Assembly (NCBI GenBank): GCA_035221665.1
Contig: CM069164.1
Coordinates: forward strand, 18,290,001-18,354,000
Origin: Okamejei kenojei
Taxonomy: Eukaryota
Length of the DNA stretch: 64,000 bases
Reading direction: 5' to 3'
Below are positions 7,015 through 62,043 of this stretch, piece after piece. The position numbers were made by a program, and so were the translations under genes. Numbering within the stretch: the stretch's first letter is position 1; every line of letters starts with the position of its first letter. Below the pieces are notes generated by a model, which saw only the letters and a program-made list of their open reading frames with translations, was not told the origin of the DNA and did not search any database.

Positions 7015-7904
7015 AAATAAGTCCTCTAATTGTGTAAAAGAAAACCAAATATGGATTTGTTGTTGGCAGGACTGAAGACCATGAAAAAGAAAATGCCAAC
7101 CAGACTTTTCTCAGTCTGGGCAAAAAATCAAAATAGCGAGATAAAATCTCGCCTCCACCAGTCCATGGAGCTAATTCACAATCTTTGACTCAATTTATCA
7201 ATTTCAATTGTGCCATTGCAGAAAATATAAATATTGCTAAACTGCAGGTGGAAAATTGTTAATGAATAAGTTTCGTTGGTGAGCTGCGGATTGCAGAAAT
7301 AAATAGTGCAACAGCTTATTTCCAATAACGCTGGCGTAAAAAATGATGAAATGCGGAAATCGTCCTTTCTATGTACTGTACTTAACATTTGAAACAAAGA
7401 TATACTATAAGATAAATGCCTATTATTGCCACATCGTTTGACCTTATCGCAAAGGATTACGCTCAGAGCAACATTCCTGATAATGTACACTATTAATATG
7501 CTTGATTTCCTAATTTTTGACAATATCCTGATCCATCAATAGTTGCTCTATTAGAACCTGCGCAACCCACAGCGCTATCGACGGCGAGTGCGTCAGGAGA
7601 TCGGAAGTCCTCAAATAACACCGGCTGACAAATGTGACCGGTGTCGACAGCCGAGGGTCGCACTGTGGTGAGGTTGGGGAAACACCCTGCCTGCCCCCGG
7701 GTTGAGAGGGTGGAAAGGACAAGAGTATAGGCTGGGCATGAAGACGAGACGAGACAGGCCCTGCCCTGCCCTGCCCGGCAGCGATTCACATCCAGTGGCA
7801 GCGCCGGCGATCGGCCCCGGGACATCGCTGGACAGACTGTCCGCCCCGATGGACAGCGACGCGTTTGCGCGCGGGCCCGGGACGCCCGGAGGCGGTGGCC
7901 TTAC

Positions 7905-8010
7905 CTGCCTCCCCTCAGCCGGAGGTGCCTCACGCTGTGTGCCGGTTAAAACCACCATCCACACCCGGCCCTTGTGATGTTTTGACTGACGAGCAGTGAC
8001 GACGCCGCCG
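7905..8010 (-). other. CCPG1: Probable non-coding first exon of CCPG1 (5' boundary approximate)
   Basis: Consensus donor CAG|GTAAGG on the minus strand, exon end 7905, inside the CpG island. Identity rests only on synteny (CCPG1 is head-to-head with PIERCE2 in human). No CCPG1 coding exon was recognised in 1-7900. Confidence 0.5.
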
Positions 8011-8046
8011 AGCGAAGCGTCAAAACAAGCGCCACGAGGCCGCGCC

Positions 8047-8065
8047 GCATTGTGGGACTTGTAGT
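8047..8065 (-). promoter_or_regulatory. ZNF143/THAP11 (SBS) motif
   Basis: Minus strand ACTACAAGTCCCACAATGC matches the ACTACAnnTCCCAnAATGC consensus. Confidence 0.8.
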
Positions 8066-8106
8066 CCCGCGTCTCGAAGCCAGCGCCGGGGCCGCCGCGT
8101 CACCGG

Positions 8107-8125
8107 ACTACGCCGCCCAGAATGC
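8107..8125 (+). promoter_or_regulatory. Second ZNF143/THAP11 (SBS)-like motif
   Basis: ACTACGCCGCCCAGAATGC fits ACTAYRnnnCCCAnAATGC and points away from the first motif. Confidence 0.65.
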
Positions 8126-8203
8126 AGCGCGGGCCGGGCCGGGCCGGGCCGGCAGCGTCCGCCCGCCGAACACGTCGCCCTCGGACAACCCCGATCAGGC
8201 GCG

Positions 8204-8217
8204 GTTACCAAGGCAGC
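8204..8217. promoter_or_regulatory. RFX X-box upstream of PIERCE2
   Basis: GTTACCAAGGCAGC is close to GTYRCC-NN-RGYAAC and lies about 140 bp before the ATG of a ciliary gene. Confidence 0.7.
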
Positions 8218-8354
8218 GCTGCCACAACAACGACGCTGGCGGGGAGCGAGTGGGGGCGATTAGGGAGTGAGGAGCCGCTACTCGGCGCCTGTGGCCGACT
8301 GGGCGCCGGAGAAAGCCCTCGGGAAGAGAAGAGGCTCGCACCGCCACCGCCACC

Positions 8355-9314
8355 ATGGCTGACTGTCACGTCCCATCGCCCGCTCGAAGGGTCCAGTTCA
8401 AAGAACCAGAATGTGACGACTTCAACTTCCAGCAGCCCTTCGTTCCAAAGCCGGAATCTGATGAGCCGCCGAGGGATCTCAACTCATCTCCGACCCGCCA
8501 GGTCCCGCTTAAGGACAGCGAGTTCGACTGCCTCAACCAATCCATCGCTTCAAAGCCTGATTCTGGTGCTGTAAGTGTAACCTGTGACGATCAAACCCCA
8601 AATAATGAATCTGAAGAGTGCGAAGCGAACTATCGGCCCGTTGCTCCAAAGGCGGACTTCGAAGACCCCGTGTATGATGATCCCTGTGCGCCAAACACTG
8701 GAATTGATGGATTTAGATACTCAGTCTGCGACGACCTCAGCACACCCATCGCTCCAGCAGTTGGCATTAAGGACTCCATCTGTGACAAGTACTGTTTCAC
8801 TCCAGGGGATCCTTTGGAAGATCCGTTGCGTGATGATTTCAACCCTTCCACTTCTTTAATAGTTCCCTTGGATTCAGTATGTCACGACCTAAAATCAGGC
8901 CTTGATTGCAAAGACGCAAGTGGTGATCTCGCGCAATCCTATGCTCCACAAGTTGAGGACAGAAAGGAAACGAGAAGCGACGATACTATTCCCGTCCGCC
9001 CTCCAACGACAAAGGATACGAAGAAGCTGTGGTTTCCCTGTGCGAACCCTGGAAACCCTGTCTTTTCCTGCATGGAAAGGGTCCCAATGTCGCCACAATC
9101 CTCGGCACCATTCGTGAAACCCCAGAATCCGCTGTTCAGAACAACCTCTGCCGATTATGGATCCAATGAACCGACTTGTGACATTGCACCCTCTGTCTAC
9201 AAACCGCTATCGCAGTCGTTCTCAGAGGCGCTCAACACCGGTGGGATGTATCGGAATCGCTCCCTGAACACTTCGTCGGATAAGAAGAGAATTCACGATT
9301 TACTCCCGCTTTGA
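8355..9314 (+). CDS. PIERCE2: Piercer of microtubule wall 2 (C15orf65, DUF4490 family), single-exon ORF with long N-terminal extension
   Basis: 319-aa ORF with a perfect Kozak context (GCCACCATGG). The C-terminal ~92 aa (NPGNPVFSCM...KPQNPLFRTTSADYG...SQSFSEALNTGGMYRNRSLNT) resemble PIERCE2. Position and orientation relative to DNAAF4 match human. Confidence 0.88.
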   Translation: MADCHVPSPARRVQFKEPECDDFNFQQPFVPKPESDEPPRDLNSSPTRQVPLKDSEFDCLNQSIASKPDSGAVSVTCDDQTPNNESEECEANYRPVAPKADFEDPVYDDPCAPNTGIDGFRYSVCDDLSTPIAPAVGIKDSICDKYCFTPGDPLEDPLRDDFNPSTSLIVPLDSVCHDLKSGLDCKDASGDLAQSYAPQVEDRKETRSDDTIPVRPPTTKDTKKLWFPCANPGNPVFSCMERVPMSPQSSAPFVKPQNPLFRTTSADYGSNEPTCDIAPSVYKPLSQSFSEALNTGGMYRNRSLNTSSDKKRIHDLLPL

Positions 9315-12300
9315 TTTTCTGCCCCCGTACAGTTCTGTATTAGTTACTATAGTAAGACAGTGAAGACAAATGTTCCCGTTTTCTTTCGATGGCAGATTTT
9401 GGAAGAGAATGGTATATAACCGGATGGAATTCGAGACTCTTGATATGTGTGTGTATAAAACAAAAACAATTTGATCGTTTGTATATTTAAAAATAATTTT
9501 CTGTGGTAATATGCCCGTCTATAATATAGGGTTTTTTTCAGACCTTTACCGTGACATTTTTTGCTATTTGCATTCATTTAGCATTTTACATTTGCTGATA
9601 AAGGAATCGAATCATGGAAAATTAAAAACCCGAGGCTATTCAGCGCGTCTTTTTCATCAGTCTAATCCTTCAGTACATCCTTTAGTCTCTTACCTTGAGA
9701 TCAGGTTCTTCCGGCACATGTCCAAGGACATTTAAATACGATAAAAGTTACTATCCTTTTTGGTAGTGAGTTCCAGATCAGGGTCAAAATGTAATGCCTT
9801 TATCACTCTCCTCTTGTCCTAGAAGAATCAATGCTTCATGGCATTTGTGGGTTTTTTTTTTTTGCCCTTCCACGTGGCTGCAGTTGGACATCTTTCTTGC
9901 AGACAGTCGTCAGGGGGACATGGCTACAAATCGGGTCTCTTACATCTCTGACAGGAGGAGCAGAGTTGTGCCGACTGTCATTTATTGCTCTTCTGCCTTT
10001 TCCAGCCATTTGATTAGTTTGATTTCTAATTCCATCTATCATTCACACTGCAAAATTGCAAAAAAGTTATAACTATAGCAGTTCCCAATTCTCTTGGTGT
10101 GGATTCCAGTGATTTCAAAGTTAGACATAAATCGCTATAGTAATTTTGAGTGAATTTAAATGATTTAGGCAGCTGCACATTTGGCCAGGCATTCTCCAAA
10201 GATTTGAAACTTTTAATCCTGAAGAAGAGCATCTGCAGTTGTATGCTGAACCTTCTTTGAGGTAAAAACAAGTGAAAATGTCCAGTTTGGTTTAAGGAAC
10301 ATGGCAGCCTCTGGCTTCAGAATGGTACCAATCGCGTGAGTGCAATGCAACTCGACCTACTGAGAAATAAAGAACGTTGCCTTGCCAACAAAAGGAGCTT
10401 CACCACCGAGTCCAAGCACTGACTCTTATAACTCTTGTATTCTTTTGTCTATGAGGTCACTCTCTAATTATTCTCATTCACTAATTGACCAGATAACCGT
10501 GTTTACAGTTTATCCCCACAGTCACTCCAGTTTTATGCTATCAGATATGTCTCCCTGCCCCCCCCCCCCCCCCAACTTAACAAACTTATTTTGTCTCCTT
10601 ACCAGTTCTGATGAAGTGTCTCTGACATGAAACAGCTCTTGTTTCTTTTCACACAGATGCAATCTAAGCTGCCAAGTATTTACAGCATTTTATGGTTTAA
10701 CAACCTACTCTTTGATGTTATTATAAGGGCTCCAAGAATTTTTTTGGAGCAATGTGTTTTTTCTTGCCATATTTCTCAGTTTAAAAGGAGATTAACTGAA
10801 ACAATATATTCTAAAATGTCTGCTGCAAAGGAAAGGTTGGCTCCCATTAACATTGTCTGACAGGAGGTACTGAAAGTGCAATTCTTATAAACAGTCATGT
10901 GCTCCTGAAATAAACAATCACCACGCACCCTAACCTTCAGAGACAACATGTATCGTTTGGTTATTAATCACTCATGATGATCAGAAAGAACATAGCATTA
11001 CTTACATTTATGATTCATTATAGACAAACAATTATAATTTGAATAAAACCAAAAAGGGTTAATGGATTTAACCAGGGCATCTAGTTAACATCAGGTAAGC
11101 CGTTTAGCAACAAGTTGAAAAACACATTCTCACAGACTGAAATCTTTCTGGACTTTCCAACTCTGAATCAGATCTATGCCAATATCAGGAGAGACTAAAT
11201 GGTGGCGAAGAAGTAGTATACATCAGACAAAGTCAGAGTGGTCAGCGAGTGCTCAAAAATGCTTGAGTCAATGAAGTTTCATGCCATCAGATTAAACATG
11301 GGCAAGGAACCGTAGATTACTGACTGTAGATTAATTGTAGATTACTGACTGCCTCTCCTTTCCCTAGTTGGTTTATCTGTACTACACACTGAACGCCACT
11401 TTAAAGAGTCAGTGGGGATAGGACATGTGCATAACTTAACAACAAGTGTAAGTCGGCATCACCATTATTAACTTTGATGGTCACATTCTGAAAGGCATAT
11501 GTCATATTGGTCTTGTAGGAGGTGGTGAGAAAATCCATGCAAGGGGAAAAAGCTAGTGATCTAACAAAATTAAACTTCATGCATTCACTTTCCAGCAGCC
11601 TGCATGATCATCTGTAGTATCCATTCCCACCACCATCAGCACACCAAGTCTGCAATGTTCACCATTTTTAGGATATACTTATATATAGGGTGGCACAGGC
11701 TCGGTAGAGCTGTTGCCTTACAGCACAAATAAATGAATTAGGAACAGGTCACTTAGGCCTTGAGCAATTGAACACCTGAAAGGATTGTGATATGATTTAG
11801 AGCCAGAGATGAAGGAATGGCAATATAATTCCAGGTGAGTTTGATGTGCTGTTTTGTAGGAAAACCTGCAGCTGATGGGGACAAGAGACTGCAGGTGCTG
11901 GAATCTTGGCAATAACATTTTTGAACCTGCAGGTGATGGTATTATCACATATTCATTGACCATGTCTTTATGGATGACAAAAGTCACATTTTGGGAAGTG
12001 TTAAAGCAGCCCAATCAAACATAATTTTAAATCTTTCCAAATATTTACACATTTGTTCTTCTTTTGCCTTCTCTAAATAACAAATCTATGACTGGGTTCT
12101 CAAAACACACACCTATGTATAGAGAGGACACTGGAAAAATAAATCTGCTTGCTGGCCTTCAAAACTTTCCGCACAATACTGCTCCAACAGAATTGCAAGC
12201 ATTCATATTTGCAGACCTCCCAACATTTGATTGTCAAAATTCATAATATTTCCCCTCAAAATTCATATTTTTAAATGAAAATTCATAATATGTCGCGGCG

Positions 12301-12937: not shown

Positions 12938-13070
12938 GGCCCGGCAACCCTCCCCCACTGCGCACGCGCGGCCACTGGGGCCCGGCAACCCTCCCCCACT
13001 GCGCACGCGCGGCCACTAGGGCCCGGCAACCCTCCCCCACTGCGCACGCGCGGCCACTAGGGCCCGGCAA
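12938..13070. repeat. 41-bp GC-rich minisatellite, about 3.2 copies
   Basis: Unit GGCCCGGCAACCCTCCCCCACTGCGCACGCGCGGCCACTRG starts at 12938, 12979, 13020 and partially at 13061. Confidence 0.92.
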
Positions 13071-16197: not shown

Positions 16198-19100
16198 CTG
16201 TCAAAGTACAAATTAAAGCATCTGCTGACAAATAAAAATAATGTAAATACCAAGACTTCAGGAACCGTCCACCTTGAATCACTAGAGTAGACTGGCTTAC
16301 AAAAACAATTATTGATAATGAGGGAGCTTCAGTCATCTTGGGCAAGGAAAAGGAAAAAATAATCTGGGTTACATTTCCAGTTCAACAAGCAGCCCCAGAT
16401 AGATGTGTTCCATTGTCACTCAGCAATGACATTAAAGCTTGGTTATACCACATCTATCATCCTCACAAACATTTGTCCTTACAAGTTACAACACTACTTT
16501 CATAAAAGGAAACGTAAAGAGCAAAAAATACTGAAAAAGTGATCACTAATGCAAGTAAATGTCTACGGTAGTATCCAATATTTCTAACTATATATGTCAA
16601 CACAAATATGATACACGTAAATTTTAAAAGATTCTCTTACCCTCCACATACAATTCCAACTCACAAAATGCTGTCCCTCTTCTAACATGGGCCTTCAGTC
16701 TGCTATCAGCATTGTCTGGAACTGCAGGAGTTAATAAATCAAGTGCCTATGAGAAAGAAAAAACTATTCAAAATTCAAACTGGAGCTAAGAAATAGATGG
16801 CTTTTAAAGTTTCAAAAATTTATTTTCTAATTTTTTTAATTCTTGAGAGAAGAATGGTAGGGTTTAAACAATTGCTTTCTCCAAGACTTCAAGAAATTGC
16901 AGTGGAGTGAATGCAGCCCAGTCCATCATGCAAACCAGCCTGCCCCAATTGACTCGATCGCCACTTCACATGCTGCCTCGGGAACGTAGCCAACATAATC
17001 AAGGACCACTCATACTCTGGTTATTCCATCTTCTCCCCTCACCCATCAGGCACTGCATACAAAAGCTTGAAAGCACATATTACCAGATTCAAGAACAGCG
17101 TCTTCCCCATTATTATTAGACGCTTAAACGGACTTCTTATCTGCTAGGGATGAATTCCCAATTTTCCACACTATCACACTGTGGCCCCTGCACTTAAAAA
17201 AAAAATCTGCACTTTCTTTGTATATTCTGCACTGTTTATTTTCTCTTTTACACTTCCTCATGTACTCATGCCTCGATAGCATGCAAAATAAAGTTATTCA
17301 ATATATATCACGCGTGTGACAATAATAGTAATGAACCAATAAATGCATTTATGATTTTATCACATTTAAGATATACAACAACGACCAGCATTATCTTTTG
17401 GAGGCTATTTCTGTACAGAATAACTGACACATAGCAGTTGATTTTACTTACAGCAATGTAGCATTGTAAATAATCTAGTTGTCACACCATGTGTAGGAGC
17501 AGAGAGTATTGCATCACTTCAAAGATAAATCTCATTAACATGTAGTACTCAATATTACCAGCCTCAGCTTTTGCCCCATTTGGTCAGCAAGAAAGCACAG
17601 TAAAATATGTTTTTAAATTTACTTTCCCAGGCCTCTTATGAGCAGCAACTCTTCCTCTCTGCAAATATTTTGTTACTGTTCCCACACTCAGGCTACGGGT
17701 TAAAATAGCAAATCTGGTCCCGTTGACATAATTGGAACTTAATCTGCAAATTTTAAAGAGGACCTAACCACTTTTGCCTGGAAGCCATTATTGCTTACAA
17801 TGTAGTGAGCTGCATAATGAAAAGTAAAGGAATGAATAGGTTATCTACAGGCTATCCTCTGAGAAAGAAATATAATTCACAAAAACATAAAAGGGAAAAT
17901 GAGCAAAAAAGCATAACAAATTTACTGTCTTATTTTGTCGAATAATGCAAGAGACCTAGGGTTGTTGTGACCAATCCAAAATCGAAAACTCAGTTGACAG
18001 AGCAGGATTCTAAATTTAAATAGAAACTATATGATTAATCTTTGCTATTTTTGTGAATCTGATTTGCAAGAACTAACCTTGGAACAGTCTTCAAGGGCTT
18101 TGTGTAAATTTCTTAGCTTAAGGTGGGTTGCAGCCCGATTTAGATACAAAGCTGGAAGTTTGTTGTTCAATCTTATTCCCAAATTATAAGCATTAATAGC
18201 TGCAAGATAATCCCCTGAAGCAAACAGCTTGCTGAAAAAGGAAGACAATGTTTGAGCAACCATGATAAAGCTGAACTATAGCTCATTGCAGAACAGTTAA
18301 TCAGATCTTCATAGATCAGAAAAAGGAAAGCAACCATAAATTGTGATATTTCACTCCAGTTAATAGCAAACTACAATCTCCGTGTCCCCAAATGTCTTTT
18401 TGACTGTACACATATAATAGCCAGATCATCATTCTTGTAAAGGATTGGCACCATCATAGAACATAGAATAGTACAATGCAGGAACGGGCTCTTCAGCCCA
18501 CCATGCCTGTGCCAACCAGATGCTAATCTAAACTAATCACATCTGTCCGCACATGCTCTGCATCCCTCTATTCTCTGACTGCAGTTTCCAGGCACCATCA
18601 CTCTTTGTGTAAAGAATTTGCCCAGTAAATTGCATTTAAACTTTCCTCCTCTCAGTTTATACATGTGCCCAAGTATTTGTCATTGCTACTCTATCTATGT
18701 CTCAACTTTTCTGTAGATCACAAAAAAACTGGAAATGATAGAATTTAATCATGAGTGATTTTAATCAAGCGGACAGAAAAAATAACAGTGGAAAATCTGG
18801 AAAGTGGTGTATATTTATATTTTAATATACTCTATCAGTGGCACTGTTGCCTGAGGAGGAAGGTTATGGACCCAGCATATCTTCATATAATCTTCAGGCA
18901 GTCAGTTTGGGCAAGATTTGCTGCATAGTGATTAAAAGAAGAAACTGGATAATTTTCCCTTTTGCAATCCAAAGTTATAATAACTCATTTTTGACTCCCC
19001 ACAAGTCAGCTTGGGTAAGGGCAGTTAGCTTTATCAGGCTGGGATTTTTTCTGAGACATCCAAGATTTATTTGACTCACTTTGATACACCTGGCCAGGTA

Positions 19101-60969: not shown

Positions 60970-61386
60970 TTAAATTGGAAATTGGTTGTAGGTGTTTTCA
61001 CTCGTTGGTTTTGAAGACATGTGGCTTGGTCGAGGCAGCGCCAGTAGGTCAGAGGTAGTGGAATGAGAAACATCTTCCTCGGAGGTAGGCTGGACAGGAA
61101 TGCTGGTGGTTTCCCCCTGGACAGACGATCCCACAAAGGCAGGTGGATCACACGTGACAGAAGAAAGGTGCAGCATTTCCATCTCCTCCCTGGAATCATG
61201 CGAATACCTGCCCGAATCTCCAGTTTCGTGGCTTCCATCACTGTTGTGAGAATATTCTGTATCTCCCATGGCGGTAAACACAGCCGGCAATGATGTGGGG
61301 GGAATCAGTGCCGAGCCTCCTGATTCCTCACGGCTCAGTCCAGTCAGCTGGTAGGGGCACACGCCAAACCCGTTTCTTCTCACTGG
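60970..61386 (-). CDS. PRTG: Protogenin, last coding exon (cytoplasmic tail)
   Basis: PVRRNGFGVCPYQ...DTEYSHNSDGSHETGDSGRYSHDSREEMEMLHLSSV resembles the PRTG motif GSHETGDSGRFSHES...HLSSV. Acceptor TAGCAG. Confidence 0.9.
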   Translation of the reverse strand, partial: PVRRNGFGVCPYQLTGLSREESGGSALIPPTSLPAVFTAMGDTEYSHNSDGSHETGDSGRYSHDSREEMEMLHLSSVTCDPPAFVGSSVQGETTSIPVQPTSEEDVSHSTTSDLLALPRPSHMSSKPTSENTYNQFPI

Positions 61387-62043
61387 CTGCTAGCAAAAGA
61401 ATGGTGATTTAGAAACAGTTTCAAATCCCAGACAATGCCCTTGGTTGGAATTAACATTTAACCTTTCCCCCCCCCCCCCCCCATAGAGAACTCAACATAT
61501 TCAAACTATTGCACAATAAACCAAAATACCTCCATTGGAAAACTAGGACCACACTGTTAGGCTTTATCCATAATTATTTAAAAAAAGACATCAGGCAGGC
61601 GGCCAATTGAATACATTTTGGCAAGTATGGGTTTAAATGAGGGAAAATAAATGAATAAATGGGGAGTAATTAAAGGTATTGGTGCCGTCAGTTGTGACTT
61701 GCTGCCTAAAACTGCAATTGCAGGATTCATTCATCATGTTGAGTTAATCAGGTCAAGCACTTAAAGTAACCAAAAATAAAACTGATTGTAACTGACAAAT
61801 CAAGCCCAACAAATTCCAATTCTATTTCTGGCAGGAATTGCTCTCATTATAGATACTGCAGCACGCATCAGCTGATGCAAGAAATTGTCAAACAAGCCCA
61901 AATCGCAGTCTATAGAGCCCAACGACTAAAACCAGAGTCTGAGACTACTTCCATCCTATTCAATCTCACCCCATCAACAAATCTTGCATTATCCTTCAAT
62001 GCAAATGTATGATCATTACTTTAGCACTTGTTCCCAATCATAC

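Follow-up and report, generated by a model that had tools for sequence, protein, structure and literature searches.

An elasmobranch PIERCE2 with a long N-terminal repeat arm and a conserved, putative PP1-docking motif

We identified a single-exon PIERCE2 gene with a long N-terminal repeat extension in a 64,000-nucleotide stretch of the skate Okamejei kenojei, here called the window. The main features of the gene and its promoter are as follows.

8355..9314, + strand: PIERCE2 coding sequence, one exon, 319 aa (open reading frame, Pfam and PDB matches, unspliced RNA contigs)
8349..8358, + strand: Kozak context gccaccATGg, whose ATG encodes the only Met before aa 241
9036..9077, + strand: PIERCE2-specific segment PCANPGNPVFSCM(E), the start of the conserved core, aligning to 7UNG_G and 7RRO_G
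9117..9284, + strand: match to PF14892 (PIRC1_2), aa 255-310, containing TSADYG
8160..9723, + strand: full extent of the unspliced RNA contigs, the 5' edge being set by a masked repeat at 8120-8159
7600..8400, no strand: GC- and CpG-rich shared promoter region (GC 0.60-0.74)
7905..7963, - strand: first exon of a divergent neighbor, from RNA contigs, joined by splicing to an exon immediately before the window

By its PF14892 domain and its PIERCE2-specific segment, the gene belongs to PIERCE2. PF14892 is the sole Pfam family in the 319-aa frame, scoring 50.6 bits over aa 255-310 against a curated cut-off of 27; within this match, TSADYG (aa 264-269) is SNYG-like under a relaxed match. The core resembles PIERCE2/C15orf65 (PF14892; 7UNG_G, 7RRO_G, 8I7R_N) with E-values of 1e-15 to 2e-13, far better than PIERCE1, and shares with it the NPGNPVFSCM segment, a divergent upstream neighbor, and a downstream gene with CS and TPR domains. 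The best PDB matches were PIERCE2 chains of 120-122 aa (7UNG_G, E 1.2e-15 over query aa 211-315), while PIERCE1 chains gave weaker matches starting only at query aa 255-260. Compared with these known proteins, the skate protein has some 200-210 extra repeat residues, together with the RVxF motif described below, and its whole coding sequence lies in one exon, in contrast to the two-exon layout of mammalian PIERCE2. An earlier note on this DNA, made from the letters alone, had recognized PIERCE2 with an N-terminal repeat extension; the extension is real, but its net length is about 200-210 aa rather than about 225, because similarity to human PIERCE2 starts at aa 211. The note had begun its DUF4490-like domain at about aa 228, whereas the Pfam match spans aa 255-310. 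The note's start at 8373 has to be moved to 8355, and its perfect Kozak ATG was correctly read. The genome holds two PF14892 loci, the PIERCE2 locus and a spliced PIERCE1-like gene on C33. We found no second copy of the arm in the genome, the other match having an E-value of 6.6 and two stops.

The RNA contigs of runs X1, X2, and X3 cover the gene from 8160 to 9634-9723 in one piece with zero joints, and that of X5 covers 8289-9529, also with zero joints; run X6 was left out (one 152-base piece, 0.09 share). An ATTAAA lies at 9621, within the contig extent. A contig of X3 and X5 stops following the genome at the splice donor at 7905 and resumes in an exon some 8 kb distant, which lies just outside the window on its upstream side. 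Since this neighbor contig crosses the donor, both runs contain spliced RNA. No indels between the coding sequence and the RNA contigs were found in one comparison or among the 12 rows listed, out of 26, in the other. A simple pattern search found no splice acceptor able to skip the arm, and the RNA contigs have no joint. As there is no further Met before aa 241, no short form can start inside the arm. Because the arm has neither an internal Met nor an acceptor-like site, PIERCE2 is made with the arm or not at all.

Several smaller features of the transcript are worth recording. An upstream, out-of-frame ATG opens a 150-aa reading frame at 8122-8574 (+) that overlaps the arm's beginning. It coincides with the masked 5' limit of the RNA contigs and may or may not belong to the transcript. 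In the 5' leader, X1-X3 carry 12-16 bases more than the window in a GAGC tetranucleotide run at 8243. Within 9028-9102, L225, R242, M245, and S250 differ from X1-X3, and R242, M245, and S250 are also unlike nearly all other elasmobranchs. Eight of the 11 coding differences from X1-X3 are nonsynonymous, a hint of recent fast change in this lineage or allele.

We take the divergent neighbor to be CCPG1, which agrees with the mouse gene name Ccpg1os; no real sequence match named the spliced neighbor as CCPG1. Among 104 of the window's reading frames scanned, TPR and CS-domain exons were found downstream at 18048-18275 (-) and 27768-28019 (-), presumably those of DNAAF4. By eye, the shared promoter or 5' leader also holds a near match, with one mismatch, to the RFX X-box consensus (8204-8217), which fits a ciliary gene.

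The N-terminal part of the protein is an array of degenerate units, listed here with its most conserved sites.

8355..8993, + strand: acidic, Pro/Cys-rich repeat arm, aa 1-213, predicted disordered (profile, composition)
8379..8432, + strand: unit 1, aa 9-26 (unit profile)
8385..8399, + strand: RRVQF, a putative PP1-docking motif of the RVxF type, aa 11-15 in unit 1, strict consensus
8439..8489, + strand: unit 2, aa 29-45 (unit profile)
8490..8543, + strand: unit 3, aa 46-63, site of a second RVxF in sharks, decayed in the window
8544..8603, + strand: unit 4, aa 64-83 (unit profile)
8640..8693, + strand: extra unit, aa 96-113, in the skate group, an alignment gap in sharks and myliobatiform rays
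8694..8795, + strand: units 5 and 6, aa 114-147 (unit profile)
8796..8846, + strand: unit 7, aa 148-164, holding LRDDFNP (aa 158-164), the most conserved patch of the arm
8847..8993, + strand: units 8, 9 (degenerate), and 10, aa 165-213 (unit profile)

The arm comprises 10-11 degenerate units of 18 aa, and residues 1-226 have a net charge of -22 and a pI of 4.3. The earlier note had counted 11-12 units; the array is real, though with the lower number. Its seven quoted units were all found where it placed them, within nt 8373-8894, and of its three consecutive exact 18-mers at aa 94-147, the abutting and the length of 18 aa each hold, but the sequences are not identical. Self-similarity of the window arm at lag 18 has a z of 3.7, a value reached by 8 of 300 shuffles, and the DNA at lag 54 has a z of 3.4. 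The lag-18 z is 3.6-8.8 in all five sharks, while lag 18 alone is not significant in the four other batoid proteins. A profile built from 36 shark units only recovers 10 units in the window arm (p<0.01; the shuffles average 1.9, with a maximum of 6), and aa 181-195 align as an 11th, degenerate one; an earlier, stricter unit profile had found only four units. Orthologous shark units score 54 against each other, versus 17 for non-orthologous ones, and for 6 of the 10 shared skate units, the best match is the positional shark counterpart. On these comparisons, the units are old and not homogenized. An origin of the unit by duplication of the core C.NPGNPVF segment was rejected (profile-profile probability 0.1%, and no unit-HMM match there).

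The mean pLDDT of the arm is 38 in an AlphaFold2 model, which gave no fold for it, and 8 of 11 arms fall on the disordered side in charge-hydropathy space. The disorder is a prediction, because the model is built on a shallow alignment of 10 sequences and the core scores low too. None of the nine arms compared with Pfam had a match below E 0.05, searches of the PDB and ESM Atlas returned no match to the arm, and it matches none of the known luminal repeats. By these comparisons, no described family includes the repeat.

All 10 named shark and ray orthologues found carry the arm, and none of the 15 bony-vertebrate PIERCE2 proteins retrieved has it. A search for proteins of 175-559 aa gave 11 matches, nine of elasmobranch type with the full arm (eight of them from named sharks and rays) and two core-only; the cluster of the ninth elasmobranch-type protein adds Amblyraja radiata and Leucoraja erinacea. 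A core search limited to 65-209 aa, a range too short to include long forms, retrieved 14 proteins in which 9-42 residues precede the core; those with a species name come from bony vertebrates. Against 1.84 billion representatives, the arm profile had eight matches, three of them elasmobranch PIERCE2. The other five are long low-complexity proteins (two named as prokaryotic, three others that are alike), which we set aside as carriers of the repeat, the unit HMM reaching at best 0.7 bits where tested. No chimaera orthologue appeared in protein searches with the whole protein, the core, or the arm profile. As sharks and rays both carry the arm and these searches held no chimaera sequence, the arm is at least as old as the ancestor that they share. 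The lineage specificity proposed in the earlier note is supported at the level of sharks and rays. NCBI has already predicted the long proteins, mostly as uncharacterized. Judged from listings, literature searches on PIERCE2/C15orf65 in sharks or cartilaginous fish, or with PP1, turned up no description of the arm, although alignments in supplements could show long forms.

Column identity is 51% in the arm, with many indels, compared with 86% in the core, and the 18 arm columns that are invariant across sharks and rays cluster in units 1 and 7. Relative to X5, the dN/dS of the arm is 0.35 (12.5 synonymous and 15.5 nonsynonymous changes, Fisher p 0.019) and that of the core is 0.41 (p 0.24); these values use 37 coding differences among the 40 of 45 contig differences listed. 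In the closest RNA comparison, with X1-X3, the arm value is 0.74 on only seven changes, not different from 1. The arm is under purifying selection. The orthologues, the unspliced RNA contigs, and the dN/dS of 0.35 bear out the earlier claim of old, maintained coding sequence. None of the observations that the note had named as telling against it was made, be it transcripts that splice out the arm or start downstream of it, stops or frameshifts in the orthologues, or a repeat signal short of significance.

The motif in unit 1, which the earlier note does not mention, fits the strict RVxF consensus [KR][KR][VI]{FIMYDP}[FW] quoted in PMC9600092. R11, Q14, and F15 of RRVQF are invariant in 11 of 11 species, and the motif and unit 7 are the most conserved stretches of the arm. 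At least one strict RVxF is found in all 11 elasmobranch arms, in unit 1 or unit 3, compared with 0.5-1.5% per shuffled arm, though the 11 species are not 11 independent trials because they are related. The loose form was found in none of 15 proteins of the bony-vertebrate type and in 7-18% of shuffled arms. The unit template itself supplies Lys-Val. A null that pools columns over 10 units gives at least one strict motif in 23% and a loose one in 68%, and it is partly circular because units 1 and 3 are in the pool. Unit 1 holds a strict motif in 8 of 11 species, and the other three all have RKVHF in unit 3; conversely, the seven species without a strict motif in unit 3 all retain the one in unit 1. 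Unit 3 reads RKVHF in four of five sharks and KIHF in the fifth (Chiloscyllium), and it has decayed in all six batoids. In unit 1 of Scyliorhinus, Phe replaces Val. None of 38 other shark units has Phe at the RVxF position. The putative docking motif is conserved and lies in a predicted disordered region; according to PMC11536154, such regions are the usual setting of PP1 motifs, and KIHF is the motif of spinophilin. No second PP1 motif was identified.

Parallels can be drawn with several other inner proteins. IIIG9/PPP1R32 (SAXO4), which is of an unrelated family (PF15691), recurs every 48 nm inside the A-tubule of mammalian sperm and binds PP1 through RKVHF, the same word as in shark unit 3. 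A PPP1R32-like skate exon (L011:1501-1540, on G000:C18) has KEVHI at the profile position of the mammalian PP1 motif, with no Phe, and since KEVHI has no aromatic residue, skate PPP1R32 probably does not dock PP1 by that site. This profile position in one species suggests that two lineages carry a PP1 site on different inner proteins. The Chlamydomonas protein FAP182 (6U42, 471 aa) likewise joins a PIERCE-type C-terminus to a large N-terminal luminal addition, but there the addition is a folded nucleotidyltransferase domain, and the arm profile has no match to FAP182. The inner proteins with Mn, PYG, and GFG repeats (SAXO1/2, FAM166, and CFAP77; PMC10973386) also consist of short tandem units in luminal, largely unfolded proteins, but with another period and no signature in common with the acidic arm. 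Membership of the arm in the Mn, PYG, GFG, or SNYG families was rejected, with PYG, GFG, and SNYG motifs in 0 of 11 arms and a Mn-like pattern in 2 of 11.

The usual view of PIERCE1 and PIERCE2 is of small, passive connectors between the 48-nm inner pattern and the 24-nm dynein docks. We tentatively favor a more active role, at a probability somewhat short of even: the likely disordered arm may lie in the A-tubule lumen and tether PP1 through its RVxF motif beside the outer-dynein-arm docking link. The N-terminal part of mammalian (bovine) PIERCE2 binds CFAP53 inside the A-tubule, and the protein passes through the wall to reach the docking complex at its CCDC114/151 coiled coil (PMC8595878). 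If the skate core sits as mammalian PIERCE2 does, the arm would hang on the luminal side. Units 1 and 3 would then dock PP1, and the other acidic units might serve as a flexible leash that makes contact at a few particular positions, chiefly in unit 7. The substrates of the tethered PP1 could be neighboring inner proteins or the docking link, either during assembly or in the mature axoneme. In favor of this tether is the identity of the shark unit 3 word RKVHF with the PP1 motif of IIIG9/PPP1R32. Enzymes can fit in the doublet, since the phosphatase DUSP21 is anchored in that of mouse sperm, where its loss shifts axonemal phosphorylation and leaves fertility unharmed (PMC13066092). Against it, unit 7 (LRDDFNP) is as conserved as the RVxF motif and finds no explanation in PP1 docking, and one or two motifs leave the retention of ten units unexplained. 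A complex prediction of aa 1-45 with PP1 scored 0.19 against a mark of 0.34; made with a PP1 chain from another organism that lacks about 54 N-terminal residues, and with alignments unused, it is evidence neither way.

It is also possible, if on the unlikely side, that the arm is a structural luminal filament whose units bind successive sites on CFAP53, MNS1, or tubulin and stiffen the doublet, the RVxF likeness being incidental or secondary. Contact with successive tubulins had already been raised in the earlier note. Its spacing would be about 18 aa per 4-nm monomer, 36 aa per 8-nm dimer, and 11-12 units per 48 nm. The positional identity of the units (54 versus 17 in sharks, 6 of 10 in the skate) is consistent with this, as is a slight difference between odd and even units, a contrast reached by 10 of 252 labelings in a test chosen after seeing the data. 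Two published parallels exist: a single GFG repeat, about 31 aa long, covers one tubulin pair (PMC10973386), and elasmobranch sperm have reinforced flagella that operate in a viscous medium (PMC11856307). However, a ruler is hard to reconcile with the variable number and length of the units, with an extra one in skates and deletions in Carcharodon and Hypanus. The net charge of the arms also ranges from +1 to -22, and the acidic arm has no known tubulin-binding motifs, the luminal signatures being as rare across the 11 arms as given above. A PP1 tether and a structural luminal filament could both hold.

A further reading is that the arm arose by an ancient tandem expansion of 54 bp at the 5' end of a gene that is partly redundant, and has simply been tolerated, with only the frame and the disordered composition selected. 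The low column identity and many indels of the arm fit this, and losing pierce2 alone leaves zebrafish without an obvious phenotype and affects mice mildly (PMC8595878). With no internal Met, moreover, the frame must stay open whether or not the arm has a function. We nevertheless consider mere tolerance improbable, given the dN/dS of 0.35 (p 0.019), the clustering of the 18 invariant columns in units 1 and 7, and the keeping of about ten units in all lineages. More doubtful again is a role of the Cys/Asp units in metal binding (Zn or Ca), or in disulfide cross-linking that would toughen the axoneme in sperm maturation. Each arm does have 7-12 Cys and 13-21% Asp plus Glu, and C125, C176, and C185 are invariant, but the Cys residues are mostly single and 14-39 residues apart, CD[DEN] words number only 1-6 per arm, and no arm of the nine has a Pfam match below E 0.05. 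The metal binding through CDD motifs suggested in the earlier note therefore finds no backing: there is about one Cys per unit, CxxC and HxxC are absent from the window arm and 8 of 11 species (and sporadic in three), and the best-conserved unit has Arg in place of Cys.

Returning to the PP1 tether, a bolder version would be that sharks and rays made PIERCE2 a PP1-targeting subunit that places a phosphatase in the A-tubule every 48 nm by the docking link, and that mammals use PPP1R32 instead, with luminal PP1 control of dynein-driven beating reached independently in the two groups. We regard this as a speculative and rather unlikely extension. If the tether is real, a lineage-wide arm with a PP1 site would turn the PIERCE2 link into a signaling post, and the cilia and sperm tails of sharks, skates, and rays would gain an extra control point. 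It would also open a direct route to studying how beating is tuned by phosphorylation within the doublet. Elasmobranch sperm have an unusual helical, reversible beat (PMC11856307), for which the arm is a molecular candidate, though a candidate only.

Elsewhere in the window, no long PHD-type exon lies at 28000-61400, the interval that separates the DNAAF4-like gene from a PRTG-like last exon at 60973-61389 (-). PYGO1, presumably the human neighbor, thus seems to be missing there. A 221-codon frame at 28450-29115 (-) has a weak PF09004 match and, as we take it, resembles the decayed end of a LINE reverse transcriptase. Closer to PIERCE2, a GC-rich 41-bp tandem repeat occupies 12938-13070 in 3.2 copies that are 98% alike.
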